Below are positions 10,934-32,032 of a DNA stretch of 35,372 nt, one piece after another; the stretch's first letter is position 1, and the number at the start of each line of letters is the position of its first letter. Location of the stretch: the NCBI GenBank assembly GCA_046563655.1, contig CM102284.1, positions 9,300,001-9,335,372 on the forward strand. The letters run 5' to 3'. Source of the stretch: Yuukianura sp. NJ FZ-2021 (Eukaryota). Made by a program: the position numbers and the translations under genes. The notes beneath the pieces are model-generated. The model searched no databases. It saw nothing but the letters and a program-made list of their open reading frames with translations, and had not been told where the DNA came from.

Positions 10934-13254
10934 TTAGTCAGTTGGTTCCTGTCCTGTTCCAGACAGAGTTGAAAGTTTGAGAATACTTTTCAATCCATCA
11001 AGTGTCACGACCGCTACAGAATTCAATTTACCATTTCCACTTCCACAAGTTCCGGGTGGAAGGATAATCGCCGCAGAATCGCTGATTGCGTCTGGAGTGC
11101 TGGAACCGGACGCTGCAACAGGCAAAGTTAGAGCAAGAGTACTGGAACTGCTGGATGCTGCAACTGGTCTAGTTAGAGCAAGAGTACTGGAACGGCTGGA
11201 TGCTGCTACTGGCCAAGGTAGAGCAAGAGTACTGGAACTGCTGGACGCTGCTACTGGCAAAGTTAGAGCAAGAGTACTGGAACTGCTGGATGCTGCTACT
11301 GGGCAAGGTAGAGCAAGAGTACTGGAACTGCTGGACGCTGCTACTGGCAAAGTTAGAGCAAGAGTACTGGAACTGCTGGATGGTGCAACTGGGAAAGTTT
11401 CCACAAAGTTATCCAGAGTGGCTTGAGTGAGAGTGGCAGTTGATGAGCGGCTTCGTTTTGGATTTTGAGAAGTAGCGGGTGAATCGTCACGCTGACGTTT
11501 GTTGTTCGTTTGAGCTCCGTTTGGCTGAGCAGCTTTTGCCTTTGACCGCGTCGTTACTCGGCAATTTTTGAACATTTCTTGCTTGAAGAGCTGTCGCCGT
11601 CGCTTATAGTCCGCTTCCTCCTCTGCTTGTAGTTGTAGAGCATACAGAAAGTCTGGATCTGGAGCAGTATCCTTGGCTTCAGCTCCTGTCGGCTCGGTTT
11701 CATCTTCCATTTCTTGGGGTTCCTAAAATTCAGCAGTTTCTATTAATCAAAGTTAAAATTTTGAAGAACTATAAAATTATCCTCAAATCCAAAGTAACTT
11801 AGGAAATACCCCGAAGGAAGTTGCAGCATTTGGGATGGTTTCCGTGGAAAAAGTCACAGTTGAAGTCACGTTCGGCAATTTGGTAACAATTTTGGCAGCA
11901 TTTCCATTTGGTTGAGCAGCATTTCTATTACTTCCAGTAGTAGCATTTCCTGTTGCAGAGCCAGTAGAAGTTGAAAGAGGTGGTGGATCTTCACCAGTTG
12001 AGCCACCAGTCTGCGTTATTCAGAAAACAGAAATCAAGTTTTGATTATCAAAAGTGACTTTTTGAGTTAGTTCTTTTTTTTAATTTTTGATGTTACCTGA
12101 TTGTCGTCGAGAACAATCCTTTCAGCGGAAGTTGATGTAGCAGTGGCTGATGGAAAGCTGAGTTTCCTTTGCTTAGGCTTTGGCTTTGAAAGTCTCATGA
12201 CTCCTGATCCCGAAAAACGCGGTCTGTTGTACGTCGGTGTGGCATCTTCTTCAGCTTGAAGGCGTCTGGCAAATTCCTCATCTTCTTCCAGCGATGAGGC
12301 ACTCTGAACGGGTGGAAGTGGCCCTTCTTGTTCCTGAAAGAGGAAAAGAGTGTCATGATATCCACAATCCACATTTAACAATTACCAATCCAACTTACTT
12401 CCATCTTCCTGATCAACTCCATGGATTCGCGTTCTTCTATTTGACGCTCGCGTTCCAGCTCTTCGTTAAGTCTCTGTTGTTCTCGTTCCAAATCAGCCAA
12501 AATTTCTCCTGGACGAACCAACACACCATCCAGAACTACTGGCTTCACAGGACTCAGGCAAAGTTGAGTGTCTTCCCCATTTTGACGAGCAGCAACCCGT
12601 GCTGGAAACTTTTGACAAAATTCATTATTCAAAAGACAATCAAAACGTATTATTTTCGTTCCTTACCACTTCCTGGATTTTGGTCCAAAATGGGACGTTG
12701 ATGAAAGTTTTGTCCTTGGAAGCATTTCGATTCCAAACTGACAGCCGAGTTCGGCAACTATGACACTGCATAGAGGCTTTGGCAATGCTCTCCTTGTGAC
12801 ATGCCAAACAGGAGGAATGACCACAAGGATAAGTGACTGGCTCAATGAACAGGTCCATGCAAATGGGACACTTGACGTCTTCCCAGGTCAGATTCTAAAA
12901 CAAAAGTAACTAACTCAGCATTGATTAACAATTGTAAAGCAATTGAGTACTTACGTCCAGCGGAATGTTGATCTCCTTCTTCTTCCTTTTGGATTCTTTG
13001 GAATGCTTTGGTTGTGGTCCCGATTTTTTGCTCGGTCTCCCTCGACGTCTTGTCCCATCTCCGCGGCCCTCTTCTTTAGCATGAATGGACGAACTAGAAT
13101 CGTCATGGGACGTCCCATTGTCATGATGCACAGCTGAATCTTGGTGGCCATTTGTCAATGTTTCCTGTGGACTGGGTGGGCCCTTAACTGCTGCTATAAC
13201 GTCCACGTCAACTAGAATGGCCTCATTATCTGTTTCTGGAGTGGCGATCTCCAT
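10934..13254 (-). CDS. RNF168: RNF168-like E3 ubiquitin ligase (RING, UMI/MIU motifs), multi-exon
   Basis: RING CPICMDLFIEPVTYPCGHSSCLAC..CHSCRTRLSVW; PGEILADLERE..EERESMELIRKM; MIU-like DEEFARRLQAEE and DFLYALQLQAEEE followed by an LR-motif-like RVTTRSK. Start and last exon are less certain. Confidence 0.8.
11100..11399 (-). repeat. Coding minisatellite, 45-bp unit (15 aa, PVAASSSSSTLALTL), about 6.5 copies with 90-bp alternation
   Basis: GAGCAAGAGTACTGGAAC recurs at 11131, 11176, 11221, 11266, 11311, 11356. Confidence 0.95.
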
Positions 13255-19030: not shown

Positions 19031-19910
19031 TGACTCTCACCGACTCTCACTGACTCTCACTGACTCTCACTGACTCTCACTGACTCTCACCGCCTCTCAC
19101 TGGTTCTATCCGACTCTCACTGGTTCTATCCGACTCTCACTGGTTCTATCCGACTCTCACTGGTTCTATCCGACTCTCACTGGTTCTATCCGACACTCAC
19201 TGGTTCTAACCGACTCTCACTGACTCTCACCGACTCTCACCGACCCTCACTGACTCTCACCGACTCTCACTGACTCTCACCGCCTCTCACTGGTTCTATC
19301 CGACTCTCACTGGTTCTATCCGACTCTCACTGGTTCTATCCGACTCTCACTGGTTCTATCCGACACTCACTGGTTCTAACCGACTCTCACTGGTTCTAAC
19401 CGTATCTCACTGACTCTCACCGACTCTCCCTGACTCTCACTGGTTCCAACCGACTCTCACTGACTCTCACTGACTCTCACTGGTTCTAACCGACTCTCAC
19501 TGACTCTCACCGACTCTCACTGACTCTCACCGACTCTCACTGACTCTCACCGACTCTCACTGACTCTCACTGACTCTCACTAACTCTCACTGACTCTCAC
19601 CGACTCTCACTGACTCTCACCGACTCTCACTGACTCTCACCGACTCTCACTGACTCTCACCGACTCTCACTGACTCTCACTGACTCTCACTGACTCTCAC
19701 TGGTTCTAACCGACTCTCACTGACTCTCACTGACTCTCACTGGCTCTCACTGGTTCTAACCGACTCTCACTGACTCTCACCGACTCTCACTGACTCTCAC
19801 CGACTCTCACTGACTCTCACCGACTCTCACTGGTTCTAACCGACTCTCACCGACTCTCACTGACTCTCACCGACTCTCACTGACTCTCACTGGTTCTAAT
19901 CGACTCTCAC
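19031..19910. repeat. 10-bp tandem array (YGACTCTCAC with TGGTTCTAWC variants; 20-bp higher-order units), about 88 units
   Basis: Exact 10-nt periodicity throughout. Confidence 0.98.
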
Positions 19911-21473
19911 TTTGGGATTGAACTTTGGGATTGAGCTTTGAGATTGATCTTTTGGATTGAGCTTTGGGATTGTGCTTTGGGATTGAGCTTATGGATTGAG
20001 CTTTGGGATTGAGCTTTGGGATTGATCTTTGGGATTGAGTTTATGGATTGAGCTTTGGGATTGAGCTTAGGGATTGAGCTTAGGGAGTGAGCTTTGGGAT
20101 TGAGCTTTGGGATTGAGCTTAGGGATTGAGCTTAGGGATTGAGCTTTGGGATTGAGCTTTGGGATTGAGCTTTGGGATTGAGCTTAGGGATTGAGCTTAG
20201 GGATTGAGTTTTGGGATTGATCTTTGGGATTGAGCTTATGGATTGAGCTTTGGGATTGAGCTTTGGGATTGAGCTTTGGGATTGAGCTTTGGGATTGATC
20301 TTTGGGATTGAGCTTATGGATTGAGCTTTGGGATTGAGCTTTGGGATTGAGCTTTGGGATTGATCTTTGGGATTGAGCTTATGGATTGAGCTTTGGGATT
20401 GAGCTTTGGGATTGATCTTTGGGATTGATCTTTGGGATTGATCTTTGGGATTGATCTTTGGGATTGATCTTTGGGATTGAGCTTTGGGATTGAGCTTTGG
20501 GATTGAGCTTTGGGATTGATCTTTTGGATTGAGCTTTGGGATTGAGCTTTGGGATTGAGCTTAGGGATTGAGCTTAGGGAGTGAGCTTTGGGATTGAGCT
20601 TAGGGATTGAGCTTTGGGATTGAGCTTAGGGATTGAGTTTTGGGATTGATCTTTGGGTTTGAGCTTATGGATTGAGCTTTGGGATTGAGCTTTGGGATTG
20701 ATCTTTGGGATTGAGCTTATGGATTAAGCTTTGGGATTGAGCTTTGGGATTGATCTTTGGGATTGATCTTTGGGATTGAGCTTTTGGATTGAGCTTTGGG
20801 ATTGAGCTTTGGGATTGAGCTTTGGGATTGAGCTTTGGGATTGAGCTTTGGGATTGATCTTTGGGATTGAGCGTATGGATTGAGCTTTGGGATTGAGCTT
20901 AGGGATTGAGCTTAGGGAGTGAGCTTTGGGATTGAGCTTTGGGATTGAGCTTTGGGATTGAGCTTTGGGATTGAGCTTTGGGATTGAGCTTTGGGATTGA
21001 GCTTTGGGATTGATCTTTGGGATTGATCTTTGGGATTGAGCTTTGGGATTGAGCTTTGGGATTGAGCTTTGGGATTGAGCTTTGGGATTGATCTTTGGGA
21101 TTGAGCGTATGGATTGAGCTTTGGGATTGAGCTTAGGGATTGAGCTTAGGGAGTGAGCCTTGGGATTGAGCTTTGGGATTGAGCTTAGGGATTGAGCTTA
21201 GGGAGTGAGCTTTGGGATTGAGCTTAGGGATTGAGCTTTGGGATTGAGCTTAGGGATTGAGCTTAGGGATTGAGTTTTGGGATTGATCTTTGGGATTGAG
21301 CTTATGGATTGAGCTTTGGGATTGAGCTTTGGGATTGAGCTTTGGGATTGATCTTTTGGATTGAGCTTTGGGATTGAGCTTTGGGATTGAGCTTTGGGAT
21401 TGGGCTTTGGGATTGAGCTTAGGGATTGAGCTTATGGATTGAGCTTTGGGATTGAGCTTAGGGATTGAGCTTA

Positions 21474-22049
21474 CCCAACCAGAAACGAAATTTAAATTCA
21501 CGTTTATTTAACATTGGCAATGTGAAAAATGTGTGATGTAAATTGTTAGGGAACTTTGTATTTACAACATTTTTTTAACCTTGGATTAGTAAGTGAAAAT
21601 CACGTTGATACTATCCGTGTTTATAACGAGTTTATAACGCAGCAGTTTACAACTGTTAGCGATAATAAGAAAATAACAGATATATAACGTGATTTTAACG
21701 TTTCGGAGTCGCAACGTTAATTTCACTCCTTTTTCACGTCGCTCCCACAATTCAGTTGCAGCGGCATGAGCATGACTATGAGAAACAGATTAGGAGAATC
21801 CAAGAATATGAGTTTGGAGAGGTGGTGCAGGGCATAGGAGGAAGAGAAAGAGGAGGGAGATAAGGAGAGGGTACGAACCTCCAGTTGGGTGTTCTTTTTT
21901 TTTCACTTTCGCTACCAAAATGCAACGTTATGTTTTCTCACACTCTCAACACTAATTTCACGTGGAAAGCGCGGCCACAAATCACATTAGCGCAACGTTA
22001 CTTGGTAACACAAATAATACGTTGTTTTAACTTCCGATTTCTGGCTGGG
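21474..22049. mobile_element. 576-bp non-autonomous TIR DNA element (MITE-like), copy 1, TA target duplication
   Basis: Ends CCCAACCAGAAA... and ...TTTCTGGCTGGG are imperfect inverted repeats; flanked by TA (21472-73, 22050-51) splitting a satellite unit; many subterminal AACGTT/CACGT motifs; no ORF. Confidence 0.85.
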
Positions 22050-22082
22050 TAGGGATTGAGCTTAGGGATTGAGCTTAGGGAT

Positions 22083-22531
22083 TGTGGGATAACATAAGCT
22101 GTAGAGCCTTCATTTGGTACAGGAGGCACCATGGTCTAGTGGTAACACTAGCTACCTTATTTTTTCCTAACAGAGTGGTGGACCGACCGTTCGCGAACCA
22201 GCGAGGTGGATTTTTCTCGGAGGTCATTCCCACCTTCAATGAGAACTCCACCTTTGCTGACGAGGGCTTCCCTGCGAGCTGAATTGCATATCTGAGTTGA
22301 TTAGGTTAATTGGTGTTTGTTTGTCCCTTTGCCGCATGGTTCGGTTCCCTGTTCCCCTAGGTTAGTGTCAACTCAGTGTGTATTTCTGTCTTGTTGGTTG
22401 AGGCTTTAGCTTCGGGGGCCGAAGCTTAGGCGGCGGGGTCGTGTGGGATAACATAAGCTGTAGAGCCTTCATTTGGTACAGGAGGCACCATGGTCTAGTG
22501 GTAACACTAGCTACCTTATTTTTTCCTAACA
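22083..22531 (+). mobile_element. TRIM (miniature non-autonomous LTR retrotransposon), copy 1; LTRs 22083-22172 and 22442-22531
   Basis: Two apparently identical 90-bp direct repeats with TG...CA ends; 4-bp TSD GGAT (22079-82, 22532-35); PBS-like TGGTGGACC 3 nt after the 5' LTR; G-rich tract before the 3' LTR. Confidence 0.92.
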
Positions 22532-25416
22532 GGATTGATCTTTGGGATTGAGCTTATGGATTGAGCTTTGGGATTGATCTTTGGGATTGATCTTTGGGAT
22601 TGAGCTTATGGATTGAGCTTTGGGATTGAGCTTTGGGATTGAGCTTTGGGATTGATCTTTGGGATTGAGTGTATGGATTGAGCTTTGGGATTGAGCTTAG
22701 GGATTGAGCTTATGGATTGAGCTTTGGGATTGAGCTTTGGGATTGAGCTTTGGGATTGAGCTTAGGGATTGAGCTTATGGATTGAGCTTTGGGATTGAGC
22801 TTTGGGATTGAGCTTTGGGATTGAGCTTTGGGATTGATCTTTGGGATTGAGTGTATGGATTGAGCTTTGGGATTGAGCTTAGGGATTGAGCTTAGGGAGT
22901 GAGCTTTGGGATTGAGCTTTGGGATTGAGCTTAGGGATTGAGCTTAGGGAGTGAGCTTTGGGATTGAGCTTTGGGATTGAGCTTTGGGATTGAGCTTTGG
23001 GATTGATCTTTTGGATTGAGCTTTGGGATTGAGCTTTGGGATTGAGCTTAGGGATTGAGCTTTGGGATTGAGCTTAGGGATTGAGCTTAGGGAGTGAGCT
23101 TTGGGATTGAGCTTAGGGATTGAGCTTTGGGATTGAGCTTAGGGATTGAGCTTAGGGATTGAGTTTTGGGATTGATCTTTGGGTTTGAGCTTATGGATTG
23201 AGCTTTGGGATTGAGCTTTGGGATTGGTCTTTGGGATTGAGCTTATGGATTGAGCTTCGGGATTGAGCTTTGGGATTGATCTTTGGGATTGAGCTTTGGG
23301 ATTGAGCTTAGGGATTGAGCTTAGGGAGTGAGCTTTGGGTTTGAGCTTTGGGATTGAGCTTAGGGATTGAGCTTAGGGATTGAGCTTTGGGATTGAGCTT
23401 AGGGATTGAGCTTTGGGATTGAGCTTTGGGATTGAGCTTTGGGATTGAGCTTAGGGATTGAGCTTAGGGATTGAGCTTAGGGATTGAGTTTTGGGATTGA
23501 TCTTTGGGATTGAGCTTATGGATTGAGCTTTGGGATTGAGCTTTGGGATTGAGCTTTGGGATTGAGCTTTGGGATTGAGCTTTGGGATTAAGCTTAGGGA
23601 TTGAGCTTAGGGAGTGAGCTTTGGGATTGAGCTTTGGGATTGAGCTTAGGGATTGAGGTTTGGGATTGAGCTTATGGATTGAGCTTTGGGATTGAGCTTA
23701 GGGATTGAGCTTTGGGATTGAGCTTAGGGATTGAGCTTAGGGAGTGAGCTTTGGGTTTGAGCTTTGGGATTGAGCTTAGGGATTGAGCTTAGGGATTGAG
23801 CTTAGGGATTGAGTTTTGGGATTGATCTTTGGGTTTGAGCTTATGGATTGAGCTTTGGGATTGAGCTCTGGGATTGATCTTTGGGATTGAGCTTATGGAT
23901 TGAGCTTTGGGATTGAGCTTAGGGATTGAGCTTTGGGATTGAGCTTTGGGATTGAGCTTAGGGATTGAGCTTATGGATTGAGCTTTGGGATTGAGCTTAG
24001 GGATTGAGCTTAGGGAGTGAGCTTTGGGATTGAGCTTTGGGATTGAGCTTAGGGATTGAGCTTAGGGATTGAGCTTTGGGATTGAGCTTTGGGATTGAGC
24101 TTTGGGATTGAGCTTAGGGATTGAGCTTAGGGATTGAGTTTTGGGATTGATCTTTGGGATTGAGCTTATGGATTGAGCTTTGGGATTGAGCTTTGGGATT
24201 GAGCTTTGGGATTGAGCTTTGGGATTGATCTTTGGGATTGAGCTTATGGATTGAGCTTTGGGATTGAGCTTTGGGATTGAGCTTTGGGATTGATCTTTGG
24301 GATTGAGCTTATGGATTGAGCTTTGGGATTGAGCTTTGGGATTGATCTTTGGGATTGATCTTTGGGATTGATCTTTGGGATTGATCTTTGGGATTGATCT
24401 TTGGGATTGAGCTTTGGGATTGAGCTTTGGGATTGAGCTTTGGGATTGATCTTTTGGATTGAGCTTTGGGATTGAGCTTTGGGATTGAGCTTAGGGATTG
24501 AGCTTAGGGAGTGAGCTTTGGGATTGAGCTTAGGGATTGAGCTTTGGGATTGAGCTTAGGGATTGAGTTTTGGGATTGATCTTTGGGTTTGAGCTTATGG
24601 ATTGAGCTTTGGGATTGAGCTTTGGGATTGATCTTTGGGATTGAGCTTATGGATTAAGCTTTGGGATTGAGCTTTGGGATTGATCTTTGGGATTGATCTT
24701 TGGGATTGAGCTTTTGGATTGAGCTTTGGGATTGAGCTTTGGGATTGAGCTTTGGGATTGAGCTTTGGGATTGAGCTTTGGGATTGAGCTTTGGGATTGA
24801 TCTTTGGGATTGAGCGTATGGATTGAGCTTTGGGATTGAGCTTAGGGATTGAGCTTAGGGAGTGAGCTTTGGGATTGAGCTTTGGGATTGAGCTTTGGGA
24901 TTGAGCTTTGGGATTGAGCTTTGGGATTGAGCTTTGGGATTGAGCTTTGGGATTGATCTTTGGGATTGATCTTTGGGATTGAGCTTTGGGATTGAGCTTT
25001 GGGATTGAGCTTTGGGATTGAGCTTTGGGATTGATCTTTGGGATTGAGCGTATGGATTGAGCTTTGGGATTGAGCTTAGGGATTGAGCTTAGGGAGTGAG
25101 CCTTGGGATTGAGCTTTGGGATTGAGCTTAGGGATTGAGCTTAGGGAGTGAGCTTTGGGATTGAGCTTAGGGATTGAGCTTTGGGATTGAGCTTAGGGAT
25201 TGAGCTTAGGGATTGAGTTTTGGGATTGATCTTTGGGATTGAGCTTATGGATTGAGCTTTGGGATTGAGCTTTGGGATTGAGCTTTGGGATTGATCTTTT
25301 GGATTGAGCTTTGGGATTGAGCTTTGGGATTGAGCTTTGGGATTGGGCTTTGGGATTGAGCTTAGGGATTGAGCTTATGGATTGAGCTTTGGGATTGAGC
25401 TTAGGGATTGAGCTTA

Positions 25417-25992
25417 CCCAACCAGAAACGAAATTTAAATTCACGTTTATTTAACATTGGCAATGTGAAAAATGTGTGATGTAAATTGTTAGGGAACTTT
25501 GTATTTACAACATTTTTTTAACCTTGGATTAGTAAGTGAAAATCACGTTGATACTATCCGTGTTTATAACGAGTTTATAACGCAGCAGTTTACAACTGTT
25601 AGCGATAATAAGAAAATAACAGATATATAACGTGATTTTAACGTTTCGGAGTCGCAACGTTAATTTCACTCCTTTTTCACGTCGCTCCCACAATTCAGTT
25701 GCAGCGGCATGAGCATGACTATGAGAAACAGATTAGGAGAATCCAAGAATATGAGTTTGGAGAGGTGGTGCAGGGCATAGGAGGAAGAGAAAGAGGAGGG
25801 AGATAAGGAGAGGGTACGAACCTCCAGTTGGGTGTTCTTTTTTTTTCACTTTCGCTACCAAAATGCAACGTTATGTTTTCTCACACTCTCAACACTAATT
25901 TCACGTGGAAAGCGCGGCCACAAATCACATTAGCGCAACGTTACTTGGTAACACAAATAATACGTTGTTTTAACTTCCGATTTCTGGCTGGG
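25417..25992. mobile_element. 576-bp TIR element, copy 2
   Basis: Same sequence and flanks as 21474-22049, offset 3943. Confidence 0.85.
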
Positions 25993-26025
25993 TAGGGATT
26001 GAGCTTAGGGATTGAGCTTAGGGAT

Positions 26026-26475
26026 TGTGGGATAACATAAGCTGTAGAGCCTTCATTTGGTACAGGAGGCACCATGGTCTAGTGGTAACACTAGCTACCT
26101 TATTTTTTCCTAACAGAGTGGTGGACCGACCGTTCGCGAACCAGCGAGGTGGATTTTTTCTCGGAGGTCATTCCCACCTTCAATGAGAACTCCACCTTTG
26201 CTGACGAGGGCTTCCCTGCGAGCTGAATTGCATATCTGAGTTGATTAGGTTAATTGGTGTTTGTTTGTCCCTTTGCCGCATGGTTCGGTTCCCTGTTCCC
26301 CTAGGTTAGTGTCAACTCAGTGTGTATTTCTGTCTTGTTGGTTGAGGCTTTAGCTTCGGGGGCCGAAGCTTAGGCGGCGGGGTCGTGTGGGATAACATAA
26401 GCTGTAGAGCCTTCATTTGGTACAGGAGGCACCATGGTCTAGTGGTAACACTAGCTACCTTATTTTTTCCTAACA
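26026..26475 (+). mobile_element. TRIM copy 2; LTRs 26026-26115 and 26386-26475
   Basis: Same as copy 1 with the same GGAT TSD; 1 nt longer, apparently in an internal T run. Confidence 0.92.
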
Positions 26476-29400
26476 GGATTGATCTTTGGGATTGAGCTTA
26501 TGGATTGAGCTTTGGGATTGATCTTTGGGATTGATCTTTGGGATTGAGCTTATGGATTGAGCTTTGGGATTGAGCTTTGGGATTGAGCTTTGGGATTGAT
26601 CTTTGGGATTGAGTGTATGGATTGAGCTTTGGGATTGAGCTTAGGGATTGAGCTTATGGATTGAGCTTTGGGATTGAGCTTTGGGATTGAGCTTTGGGAT
26701 TGAGCTTAGGGATTGAGCTTATGGATTGAGCTTTGGGATTGAGCTTTGGGATTGAGCTTTGGGATTGAGCTTTGGGATTGATCTTTGGGATTGAGTGTAT
26801 GGATTGAGCTTTGGGATTGAGCTTAGGGATTGAGCTTAGGGAGTGAGCTTTGGGATTGAGCTTTGGGATTGAGCTTAGGGATTGAGCTTAGGGAGTGAGC
26901 TTTGGGATTGAGCTTTGGGATTGAGCTTTGGGATTGAGCTTTGGGATTGAGCTTTGGGATTGAGCTTAGGGATTGAGCTTTGGGATTGAGCTATGGGATT
27001 GAGCTTTGGGATTGAGCTTTGGGATTGAGCTTAGGGATTGAGCTTTGGGATTGAGCTTAGGGATTGAGCTTAGGGAGTGAGCTTTGGGATTGAGCTTAGG
27101 GATTGAGCTTTGGGATTGAGCTTAGGGATTGAGCTTAGGGAGTGAGCTTTGGGATTGAGCTTTGGGATTGAGCTTAGGGATTGAGCTTAGGGAGTGAGCT
27201 TTGGGATTGAGCTTTGGGATTGAGCTTAGGGATTGAGCTTAGGGAGTGAGCTTTGGGATTGAGCTTTGGGATTGAGCTTTGGGATTGAGCTTAGGGATTG
27301 AGCTTTGGGATTGAGCTTAGGGATTGAGCTTAGGGATTGAGCTTAGGGATTGAGCTTTGGGATTGAGCTTAGGGATTGAGCTTAGGGATTGAGCTTTGGG
27401 ATTGAGCTTAGGGATTGAGCTTTGGGATTGAGCTTAGGGATTGAGCTTAGGGATTGAGCTTAGGGAGTGAGCTTTGGGATTGAGCTTTGGGATTGAGCTT
27501 TGGGATTGAGCTTTGGGATTGAGCTTAGGGATTGAGCTTAGGGATTGAGCTTAGGGAGTGAGCTTTGGGATTGAGCTTAGGGATTGAGCTTTGGGATTGA
27601 GCTTAGGGATTGAGCTTAGGGATTGAGCTTAGGGAGTGAGCTTTGGGATTGAGCTTTGGGATTGAGCTTTGGGATTGAGCTTTGGGATTGAGCTTAGGGA
27701 TTGAGCTTTGGGATTGAGCTTTGGGATTGAGCTTTGGGATTGAGCTTAGGGAGTGAGCTTTGGGATTGAGCTTTGGGATTGAGCTTAGGGATTGAGCTTA
27801 GGGAGTGAGCTTTGGGATTGAGCTTTGGGATTGAGCTTTGGGATTGAGCTTTGGGATTGAGCTTAGGGATTGAGCTTTGGGATTGAGCTTAGGGATTGAG
27901 CTTAGGGAGTGAGCTTTGGGATTGAGCTTAGGGATTGAGCTTTGGGATTGAGCTTAGGGATTGAGCTTAGGGATTGAGTTTTGGGATTGATCTTTGGGTT
28001 TGAGCTTATGGATTGAGCTTTGGGATTGAGCTTTGGGATTGGTCTTTGGGATTGAGCTTATGGATTGAGCTTTGGGATTGAGCTTTGGGATTGATCTTTG
28101 GGATTGAGCTTTGGGATTGAGCTTAGGGATTGAGCTTAGGGAGTGAGCTTTGGGTTTGAGCTTTGGGATTGAGCTTAGGGATTGAGCTTAGGGATTGAGC
28201 TTTGGGATTGAGCTTAGGGATTGAGCTTTGGGATTGAGCTTTGGGATTGAGCTTTGGGATTGAGCTTTGGGATTGAGCTTTGGGATTGAGCTTTGGGATT
28301 GAGCTTAGGGATTGAGCTTTGGGATTGAGCTTAGGGATTGAGCTTAGGGAGTGAGCTTTGGGATTGAGCTTAGGGATTGAGCTTTGGGATTGAGCTTAGG
28401 GATTGAGCTTAGGGATTGAGCTTAGGGATTGAGCTTTGGGATTGAGCTTTGGGATTGAGCTTATGGATTGAGCTTTGGGATTGAGCTTTGGGATTGAGCT
28501 TTGGGATTGAGCTTTGGGATTGAGCTTAGGGATTGAGCTTAGGGAGTGAGCTTTGGGATTGAGCTTTGGGATTGAGCTTTGGGATTGAGCTTTGGGATTG
28601 ATCTTTTGGATTGAGCTTTGGGATTGAGCTTTGGGATTGAGCTTAGGGATTGAGCTTTGGGATTGAGCTTAGGGATTGAGCTTAGGGAGTGAGCTTTGGG
28701 ATTGAGCTTAGGGATTGAGCTTTGGGATTGAGCTTAGGGATTGAGCTTAGGGATTGAGTTTTGGGATTGATCTTTGGGTTTGAGCTTATGGATTGAGCTT
28801 TGGGATTGATTGAGCTTTGGGATTGAGCTTAGGGATTGAGCTTTGGGATTGAGCTTTGGGATTGAGCTTTGGGATTGAGCTTAGGGATTGAGCTTAGGGA
28901 TTGAGCTTAGGGATTGAGTTTTGGGATTGATCTTTGGGATTGAGCTTATGGATTGAGCTTTGGGATTGAGCTTTGGGATTGAGCTTTGGGATTGAGCTTT
29001 GGGATTGAGCTTAGGGATTGAGCTTAGGGAGTGAGCTTTGGGATTGAGCTTTGGGATTGAGCTTAGGGATTGAGCTTAGGGATTGAGCTTTGGGATTGAG
29101 CTTAGGGATTGAGCTTAGGGAGTGAGCTTTGGGTTTGAGCTTTGGGATTGAGCTTAGGGATTGAGCTTAGGGATTGAGCTTAGGGATTGAGTTTTGGGAT
29201 TGATCTTTGGGTTTGAGCTTATGGATTGAGCTTTGGGATTGATCTTTGGGATTGAGCTTATGGATTGAGCTTTGGGATTGAGCTTAGGGATTGAGCTTTG
29301 GGATTGAGCTTTGGGATTGAGCTTAGGGATTGAGCTTAGGGAGTGAGCTTTGGGTTTGAGCTTTGGGATTGAGCTTAGGGATTGAGCTTAGGGATTGAGC

Positions 29401-30772
29401 TTTGGGATTGAGCTTAGGGATTGAGCTTTGGGATTGAGCTTTGGGATTGAGCTTTGGGATTGAGCTTAGGGATTGAGCTTTGGGATTGAGCTTAGGGATT
29501 GAGCTTAGGGAGTGAGCTTTGGGATTGAGCTTTGGGATTGAGCTTAGGGATTGAGCTTAGGGAGTGAGCTTTGGGATTGAGCTTAGGGATTGAGTTTTGG
29601 GATTGATCTTTGGGTTTGAGCTTATGGATTGAGCTTTGGGATTGAGCTTTGGGATTGATCTTTGGGATTGAGCTTATGGATTGAGCTTTGGGATTGAGCT
29701 TAGGGATTGAGTTTTGGGATTGATCTTTGGGATTGAGCTTATGGATTGAGCTTTGGGATTGAGCTTTGGGATTGAGCTTTGGGATTGATCTTTGGGATTG
29801 AGCTTTGGGATTGAGCTTTGGGATTGAGCTTTGGGATTGAGCTTCGGGATTGAGCTTAGGGATTGATCTTTGGGATTGAGCGTATGGATTGAGCTTTGGG
29901 ATTGAGCTTAGGGATTGAGCTTAGGGAGTGAGCTTTGGGATTGAGCTTTGGGATTGAGCTTAGGGATTGAGCTTAGGGAGTGAGCTTTGGGTTTGAGCTT
30001 TGGGATTGAGCTTAGGGATTGAGCCTATGGATTGAGCTTTGGGATTGAGCTTTGGGATTGATCTTTGGGATCGATCTTTGGGATTGATCTTTGGGATTGA
30101 GCTTTGGGATTGAGCTTTGGGATTGATCTTTGGGATTGATCTTTGGGATTGATCTTTGGGATTGAGCTTTGGGATTGAGCTTAGGGATTGAGTTTTGGGA
30201 TTGAGCTTTGGGATTGAGCTTAGGGATTGAGCTTAGGGATTGAGCTTTGGGATTGAGCTTAGGGATTGAGCTTAGGGATTGAGCTTTGGGATTGAGCTTA
30301 CGGATTGAGCTTAGGGAGTGAGCTTTGGGATTGAGCTTTGGGATTGAGCTTAGGGATTGAGCTTTGGGATTGAGCTTAGGGATTGAGCTTAGGGATTGAG
30401 CTTAGGGATTGATCTTTGGGTTTGAGCTTTGGGATTGAGCTTAGGGATTGAGCTTAGGGATTGAGCTTAGGGATTGAGTTTTGGGATTGATCTTTGGGAT
30501 TGAGCTTATGGATTGAGCTTTGGGATTGAGCTTTGGGATTGAGCTTTGGGATTGAGCTTAGGGATTGAGCTTAGGGAGTGAGCTTTGGGATTGAGCTTTG
30601 GGATTGAGCTTAGGGATTGAGCTTTGGGATTGAGCTTAGGGATTGAGTTTTGGGATTGATCTTTGGGATTGAGCTTATGGATTGAGCTTTGGGATTGAGC
30701 TTTGGGATTGAGCTTGGGGATTGATCTTTGGGATTGAGCTTATGGATTGAGCTTTGGGATTGAGCTTTGGGA

Positions 30773-31043: not shown

Positions 31044-32032
31044 GTCCTGTTCTAAATGACCAGCCACTGCTGACGTTCTCGTTTGCTGGGCAAAATGCCG
31101 TTGGGGTCGGCGTTCGGGTGAAGAAAGCTCAGTTATGGGTGAAAGTAAACTATGAATCCAAACTAGGTCCGCAGTTTGGGCAAGTGCTGCACCCCAAGGG
31201 GGTCACGCTCTACGCCTTCCAGGTCAACTACACGCACTCACAGGTCAACCACCTTCGTCCTCAGGTCAGTCACACTGACTACACTCTTATTCTTCCACTA
31301 CTAAGCATTCTAACTTGATTTTGATCACAGGATGTGACCCTTGACCTCGTCGTCTCCAAAACAGTGCCCATCGACTCCTTGGGGTGGCAGAAACTAGATG
31401 TGACAGCCACGGTCCAAAGGTGGTACTCAAAACTGAGTCGCCACCGCATCCGACATTCCCACAACCACAACTACACTCATCCAGGCCACAAACTCACAAT
31501 CCTCATAGACTGCTCGGGATGCGGCACTTCTGTGAAGCCCCTTCTGTTTAGTGATCCCCCGCCCACTCAACTCAGTGAGCCCCACCACAACTCCAGTGAG
31601 CCCCACCACAACCTGGAAGTGCCGTTCTTAGTCCTGGAGACAGAGACAGGCCCTCAAGTGAAGAGGAAGAGAAGGAGGACGCTGGAGTGCAGTCCCCGGC
31701 TGAAGCAGTGCTGCAAACAGCGGTTCTTTGTGAGTTTCCAGGAGTTGGGATGGGAGGACTGGATCATTGCCCCCCGGGGGTACTACGCCAACTACTGCAA
31801 AGGGCACTGCGGCGGAGTCCACCGCACTCCTGACACTTTCCTCAACTACCACACACACGTCATGGAGGAGTATCGCAGAACTGCGCAGGGGCAGATGGAG
31901 CTCAGTGGCCTCACACCCTGCTGCGCCCCCACCAAGTTCTCCTCCATGTCACTCATCTACTTTGGCCCCGATCTCAACATCATCAAGAGAGATCTCCCCA
32001 AAATGATCGTCGAGGAGTGCGGCTGCCCTTGA
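31044..32032 (+). CDS. Actbeta: Activin-beta (inhibin beta chain), last two exons 31044-31264 and 31331-32032; 5' partial
   Basis: Propeptide motifs AQLWV and GWQKLDVT..VQRW; furin site KRKRRR; 9-Cys mature domain CCKQRFFVSFQELGWEDWIIAPRGYYANYC..RTPDTF..CCAPTKFSSMSLIYF..IIKRDLPKMIVEECGCP, typical of arthropod Act-beta. Confidence 0.93.

Follow-up and report, generated by a model that had tools for sequence, protein, structure and literature searches.

The window, by which is meant the whole stretch of 35,372 nucleotides that was analysed, contains protein-coding frames, arrays of short tandem repeats and mobile elements. Open reading frames with Pfam assignments belong to the Chitin_bind_4, TGF_beta, GT2 glycosyltransferase, O-FucT and folate-receptor families. 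An activin/inhibin-beta-like TGF-beta gene has its last exon at 31325-32032 (Pfam TGF_beta, E = 3.7e-30), for which the best named relatives are from springtails (Orchesella and Folsomia, 58-81% identity); against named pterygote insects, identity is 46-56% at a coverage of at least 90%, and partial matches (about 58% of the query) reach up to 64%. The window is accordingly from an arthropod, in all likelihood a springtail, and belongs within or close to Collembola. A 45-bp tandem repeat (11108-11399, 6.5 copies, 89% matches) lies inside a minus-strand open frame at 10934-11722, where it is translated into a Ser/Ala/Leu-rich protein repeat. A 13-bp satellite array of about 10.9 kb (19910-30772; consensus CTTTGGGATTGAG; 78% matches in TRF) is interrupted by two transposons and is adjoined by an 880-bp array of a 20-bp repeat (19032-19911), with a strong switch in GC skew at the boundary between the two.

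The first of the two transposons is a MITE-like element of 576 bp (21474-22049) in the same satellite, 29 nt upstream of the TSD of the second. It is bounded by imperfect TIRs of about 38 nt, beginning with CCCAACCAGAAA on one side and ending with TTTCTGGCTGGG on the other, and by a duplication of TA, with a satellite-phase identity of 1.0 solely when 2 nt are removed. These characteristics suggest a non-autonomous DNA transposon of the Tc1/mariner type.

The second transposon, at 22083-22531, is a 449-bp non-coding element of the LTR-retrotransposon type within the 13-bp satellite; its parts are described here on the plus strand. The 5' LTR (22083-22172) and the 3' LTR (22442-22531) are each 90 nt long with TG..CA ends, and are 100% identical to one another, which bears out the description in the first-pass annotation of TG..CA LTRs that look identical. 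In the direct-repeat search, the repeat family includes the next G and is thus 91 nt long, with a spacing of 359 nt from LTR to LTR; the 90-nt identity was confirmed separately with blastn-short. Between the LTRs lies an internal region of 269 nt (22173-22441) that is likewise non-coding. Stop-to-stop frames that overlap the element reach 76 aa at most, and no Pfam family was matched by any of the four frames tested from the element at E <= 1.

The satellite into which the element is inserted provides an independent measure of its TSD. A copy of GGAT is present on each side (22079-22082 and 22532-22535). The left and right flanks were joined after cutting 0-8 nt, and the 13-bp phase was scored across the junction. 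The phase was restored solely by cutting 4 nt, with an identity of 0.85 versus 0.08-0.38 at 0-3 or 5-8 nt. Therefore, GGAT is a true 4-bp TSD, as had been proposed, and the element arrived by integration.

The features expected at the two ends of the internal region are less uniform in quality. Three nucleotides past the 5' LTR, a tract initiated by TGG (TGGTGGACCGACC, 22176-22188), the start of which resembles a PBS for a tRNA 3' end, agrees with the PBS-like tract reported earlier. It shares TGGTGG alone (6 nt) with PBSs of the Leu-AAG and Ile-AAT types printed in Fig. S2 of PMC10886601, and a literature search with the PBS-like string returned no tRNA or retroelement title among the matches listed. 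At the other end, the 28 nt adjoining the 3' LTR (22414-22441) form a G-rich tract in which 68% of positions are purines, and the purine share over the last 10-28 nt before the LTR is 65-70%. The tract is PPT-like at best, and is the weakest feature of the element: the earlier claim of a PPT-like tract stands as regards its G-richness and position, and falls short as regards its purine content.

The 32-nt LTR motif occurs four times in the window, not twice, and all four LTRs are identical. The additional occurrences belong to a second full copy of the element, of 450 bp, at 26026-26475 on the plus strand, which has the same flanks as the first and an extra T in an internal T-run (T5 at 22206-22210, T6 at 26149-26154); this is the sole difference between the two copies, and the T6 form is present in public contigs of both organism labels described below. 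The identity extends well beyond the element. For instance, 21001-22600 and 24944-26544 are 99.94% identical over 1601 columns, and a scan at fixed offsets found about 20.0-23.0 kb to be approximately 100% identical to a block 3930-3944 nt downstream. The arrangement is a tandem segmental duplication of about 3.9 kb (approximately 19910-23000 and 23850-26950, with offsets of 3930, 3943 and 3944) that carries satellite, MITE-like element and LTR element together, and which could be real or an artefact of assembly. Since both copies share their flanks, they reflect one insertion followed by tandem segmental duplication (or assembly duplication), and the number of independent insertions visible in the window is one. 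The identity of the LTRs indicates that this insertion is recent.

Relatives were sought in Logan contigs from four coded runs (X1-X4); a single sample of organism A supplied three of these and organism B the fourth (X3), the runs belong to two studies, and none is recorded as RNA. Contigs were aligned to 22083-22462 at a likeness of at least 80%, and stretches without cover were 22174-22264 in X4 and 22434-22462 in X3. In X1 and X2, contigs match the internal region letter for letter, apart from having the T6 form of the second copy. A contig of organism B spans 22184-22429, from which it differs by 6 letters and 5 gaps, and exact LTR pieces are also present in that organism. Summed contig depth is several-fold higher over the LTR bins than over the internal ones, although depth is not a copy number. 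Exact and degenerate patterns of the LTR core gave no matches in metagenome, genome and viral contig collections.

Additional contigs contain parts of the element in other surroundings. The 49 nt of the 3' part of the LTR (22121-22169, plus strand) constitute a conserved core that occurs alone, with 6-9 differences, in contigs of all four runs; the flanks in these contigs are unlike those of the present element, yet similar among those contigs. Similarly, the PPT side together with the start of the LTR (from 22394, 22402 or 22411 to 22446 or 22453) recurs in contigs with 2-8 other letters, after which the contigs diverge. One contig (record 13) unites the two parts: a PPT-side segment is followed by the opening 5 nt of the LTR, by 34 letters unlike those here and finally by the 49-nt core, which makes it a related LTR of about equal length and layout. 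Another (record 28) matches 22272-22453 but for 21 differing letters and 12 gaps, as fits a relative in which the 3' untranslated end has been retained. We read these related LTR elements as a group with two regions in common, namely the stretch from the PPT into the LTR start and the LTR's 3' half, a pattern that is usual for cis-acting ends (att, R/U5 and PPT) in related families and in the non-autonomous elements derived from them.

Overall, the element is probably an ordinary TRIM of the LTR-retrotransposon type that was moved in trans, with a resemblance to tRNA at chance level. Of the features by which TRIMs are recognised, LTRs with TG..CA ends, a length below 1000 bp without a mobilisation protein and a TSD of 4-6 bp are found here. 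As to dispersal, the contigs of the two organism labels contain the same element and related LTR variants, with no second insertion site of the 449-bp form seen among them. The earlier designation as an intact TRIM is thus upheld by the terminal repeats, the TSD, the small size, the lack of coding capacity and the related LTR variants in public contigs. In the life cycle that is proposed, RNA would start in the 5' LTR and end in the 3' LTR, and its reverse transcription would rely on proteins supplied in trans by an autonomous LTR element. No autonomous partner element was found; the 4-bp TSD would point to one of the Ty3/Gypsy or BEL type. Mag-type Gypsy elements are known for very short LTRs, a point on which this reading does not draw. 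A host tRNA would prime at the TGG-initiated site just past the 5' LTR, the plus strand would be primed by the G-rich tract before the 3' LTR, and integrase would join the TG..CA ends with a 4-bp stagger. What the window itself shows is a single insertion into the 13-bp satellite and then tandem copying with about 3.9 kb of surrounding DNA.

The copy at this locus might instead be a one-off, internally deleted version of an autonomous LTR retrotransposon, rather than belonging to a TRIM family whose members spread in this short form. The window holds only one independent insertion, the contigs show one form of the internal region per run versus several forms of the LTR pieces, and record 28 shows that the last 170 nt of the internal region, on its 3' side, are shared by another element, all of which would be compatible with a single deletion event. 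However, the contigs of organism B contain the internal region as well as exact LTR pieces, and the short form is thus present in more than one organism label. Additionally, identical LTRs and an intact TSD would mean that the short form itself integrated, although this point is weak because a deletion after integration would leave identical LTRs and a TSD too. A one-off deletion is considered unlikely.

A different question is whether the LTR carries a promoter of tRNA origin. The first-pass annotation had described a tRNA-5'-half/Pol III A-box-like segment in the LTR, at 22125-22149, followed by a T6 run. Both sequences are present, the latter close to where the LTR ends on its 3' side (22160-22165, plus strand); the segment includes a box-A-type motif (TGGTCTAGTGG, 22132-22142, plus strand). 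The pattern that this motif matches, TRGYNNARTGG, is a box-A-type consensus. In the window it is matched by the four LTRs and one other site, with 1.63 matches per window expected by chance; because the four LTR matches amount to one independent occurrence, the pattern is about as frequent as chance would have it. Compared with the box A given as TRGCY ... YGG in PMC10886601, the LTR reads TGGTC...TGG and has T in place of C. A 12-mer that includes the motif (TGGTCTAGTGGT, 22132-22143) recurs letter for letter at positions 8-19 in the 5' half of human tRNA-Glu-CTC printed in PMC13604853. Beyond the 12-mer, 5 of 21 positions are identical to that printed sequence (ungapped register, counted by eye), and the likeness to tRNA thus ends with the 12-mer. 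In tRNA numbering, three of the four pairs of a D-stem could form, a weak observation that was also made by eye.

Searches with Rfam and ARAGORN gave no indication of such a module. None of 4227 Rfam families, including tRNA, 5S rRNA and self-cleaving ribozymes, matched the window at gathering thresholds, and at E <= 10 there was no match to 22000-22600 or to 22083-22215 alone (133 nt). ARAGORN found no tRNA in the window, nor any in the LTR when its thresholds were relaxed. With -ps80, its one call in the element was a 'tRNA-Thr' in the internal region (22277-22359), which was rejected as noise: the same setting gave 14 calls in 23.6 kb taken from elsewhere in the window, and 85 on 300 shuffled elements. 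Box B (GGTTC) is absent from the LTR. A box-B-like sequence in the internal region (GGTTCGGTTCC, 22338-22348) was set aside as a chance match, with 12 such sites observed versus 13.5 expected. The resemblance of the LTR to tRNA is at chance level, and the proposed module is not supported, in view of the Rfam and ARAGORN results, the lack of box B, the frequency of the box-A-type pattern and a similarity confined to 12 nt.

The comparison of most relevance to this question is with Helenus (Kojima 2024, PMC10886601), TRIMs with tRNA-derived sequence in their LTRs that are reported there from six animal phyla, from fungi and from a single plant. In that account, TRIMp3 comprises Helenus and the 5S-derived Cassandra and Ajax. 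Animal Helenus have 4-bp TSDs and are apparently mobilised by Gypsy elements; among arthropods, they are listed there solely from parasitoid and gall wasps (chalcidoid and cynipid). Animal TRIMs whose LTRs carry a tRNA-like promoter have thus been published before, and the concept is not new. The element under study has in common with Helenus that it is an animal TRIM with a 4-bp TSD, a total length within the range of 311-1263 bp given in PMC10886601, and a box-A-like motif in the LTR. In contrast to Helenus, it has no box B and no recognisable tRNA-like sequence past about 12-26 nt, and is accordingly filed as a TRIM and not as Helenus.

It could nevertheless be proposed that, in a Helenus-like member of TRIMp3, the LTR core derives by decay from a tRNA or from the head of a tRNA-derived SINE, and that box A, with the T6 run as terminator, lets Pol III transcribe the element or a small RNA of about 45 nt. 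Besides the 12-mer, the TSD and the size range, several observations would suit this proposal: TGGTCTAGTGG stands in a tRNA-like register (7 nt, then T8, then the GG of a D-loop), the T6 run begins 18 nt 3' of the end of the box-A-type motif, and the motif lies inside the best-conserved segment of the LTR among related variants. PMC10886601 also states that 'not a few' LTRs in Repbase hold partial similarity to tRNA, a remark that fits a chance or vestigial reading of the present motif equally. Against the proposal, in addition to the results of the tRNA searches and the box A count, one contig LTR variant has three changes inside the box-A-type motif, and a T6 run in the 5' LTR would halt Pol III before the PBS unless termination were leaky. 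Moreover, the Helenus LTRs listed in Table S1 of PMC10886601 are 104-323 bp long, and the 90 nt of the LTR here is shorter than all of those listed. A search of the text of the Helenus supplement found neither the 11-mer, nor the 16-mer, nor the PBS, although matches spanning line breaks would escape such a search. A Helenus-like element with a degenerate tRNA- or SINE-derived Pol III module is, on this evidence, quite improbable.

A more restricted version of the same idea would treat the 49-nt core as a 'half-tRNA' Pol III unit without box B, consisting of box A and the T6 run, that is common to a group of springtail LTR elements, perhaps with the autonomous partner among them. The motif-bearing core is common to the related LTR variants found here, whereas PMC10886601 expects that autonomous partners do not have long LTR sequence in common with TRIMp3. 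We regard such a unit as very doubtful. Most likely, the 49-nt core is the conserved R/U5-att part of the LTR with its cis signals, and not a tRNA-derived gene or promoter.

The first-pass annotation had also called the LTRs densely structured and had drawn a fold for them, from which a structured functional RNA encoded in the LTR, such as a retrozyme-like ribozyme or another cis-acting fold with a pseudoknot, might be proposed. The LTR can fold as described, in that the predicted MFE structure reproduces the three nested helices. Two of them are hairpins on the plus strand, predicted from the MFE alone: hairpin 1 (22106-22127) pairs GCCTTC with GGAGGC around a 10-nt loop, and hairpin 2 (22136-22151) pairs CTAGTG with CACTAG around a GTAA loop. 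The structure is no denser than chance, however: the MFE is -24.8 kcal/mol (z = -1.42), compared with -20.5 on average for 200 shuffles, 18 of which reach a fold as stable or better. For the opposite strand of the LTR, the fold has a z of -0.58.

Variation among the contigs bears on the two hairpins differently. A related LTR variant has GCCTCC for GCCTTC opposite GGAGGC, together with another loop; T-G is thereby replaced by C-G and the 6-bp stem is kept, a one-sided change that leaves the pairing of GGAGGC intact and thus favours structure. In contrast, the variant C22136A disrupts hairpin 2 at its closing pair, no compensating change being listed, and another contig variant has a 7-nt insertion in the region of the outer stem. 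The proposed pseudoknot would consist of just 4 bp. The comparison with Rfam that the first-pass annotation had suggested came back empty at E <= 10, self-cleaving ribozymes included. Pairing between the LTR and the PBS, as in self-priming, was likewise rejected: the duplex of -25.2 kcal/mol was reached by 283 of 500 PBS shuffles and by 206 of 500 LTR shuffles. A functional RNA in the LTR is thus highly improbable. The earlier reading of a mini-LTR element with a tRNA-derived or functional RNA module is accordingly retained in its first part, and is not supported in its second in view of Rfam, ARAGORN, box B and the fold.

Finally, the notion that the locus holds no transposon at all but 1.25 units of a 359-bp tandem repeat, prompted by two direct repeats 359 nt apart, has next to no probability, given the TG..CA ends, the precise 4-bp duplication of the satellite target, which the phase test sets against such a reading, and the lack of further units in the window, where blastn-short finds two full copies only.

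The ordinary TRIM that remains the preferred reading can be placed among known small elements. Outside plants, PMC10886601 mentions TRIMs from hymenopteran insects, taeniid cestodes and bivalves. The present element is like these in its length of less than 1000 bp, two LTRs, absence of coding capacity, PBS-like and PPT-like tracts at the internal ends and short TSD, and differs in its 90-nt LTR and its springtail-like hexapod host. In the literature collection searched, there was no dedicated report on TRIMs in springtails or Collembola, nor one on TRIMp3, 'trim' in the results being mostly the trimming of reads. Cassandra is a plant TRIM of 565-860 bp with a 5S rRNA-derived Pol III promoter in its LTRs (PMC10886601); a Pol III promoter of small-RNA type with a terminator inside a TRIM LTR would be alike in idea, but there is no 5S rRNA match here in Rfam, as Cassandra or Ajax would require, and Cassandra is from plants. 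Retrozymes, which are non-autonomous elements with hammerhead ribozymes (PMC4918200), are also small non-coding retroelements with terminal repeats, whereas no match to a hammerhead or other ribozyme was found here in Rfam at E <= 10. SMARTs, the smallest non-autonomous LTR retrotransposons reported in PMC10886601 (292 bp), resemble the element in how short both their LTRs and their total length are, a comparison made by description; unlike it, they are plant elements mobilised by Copia.

The significance of the locus depends on which of these readings is correct. If a Pol III module were present after all, then the Cassandra/Helenus/Ajax class (TRIMp3) would reach a basal hexapod, and would do so with a promoter lacking box B. 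Similarly, a half-tRNA Pol III unit, if true, would carry the TRIMp3/Helenus idea to a form without box B and to a new host group, and would run counter to what has been published, namely that the LTR with the Pol III promoter is not expected in autonomous partners. As the ordinary TRIM that it probably is, the element is not surprising. It is a tidy case of a TSD proven through satellite phase, and a clean and recent TRIM with unusually short LTRs of 90 nt, which is of use in repeat annotation.
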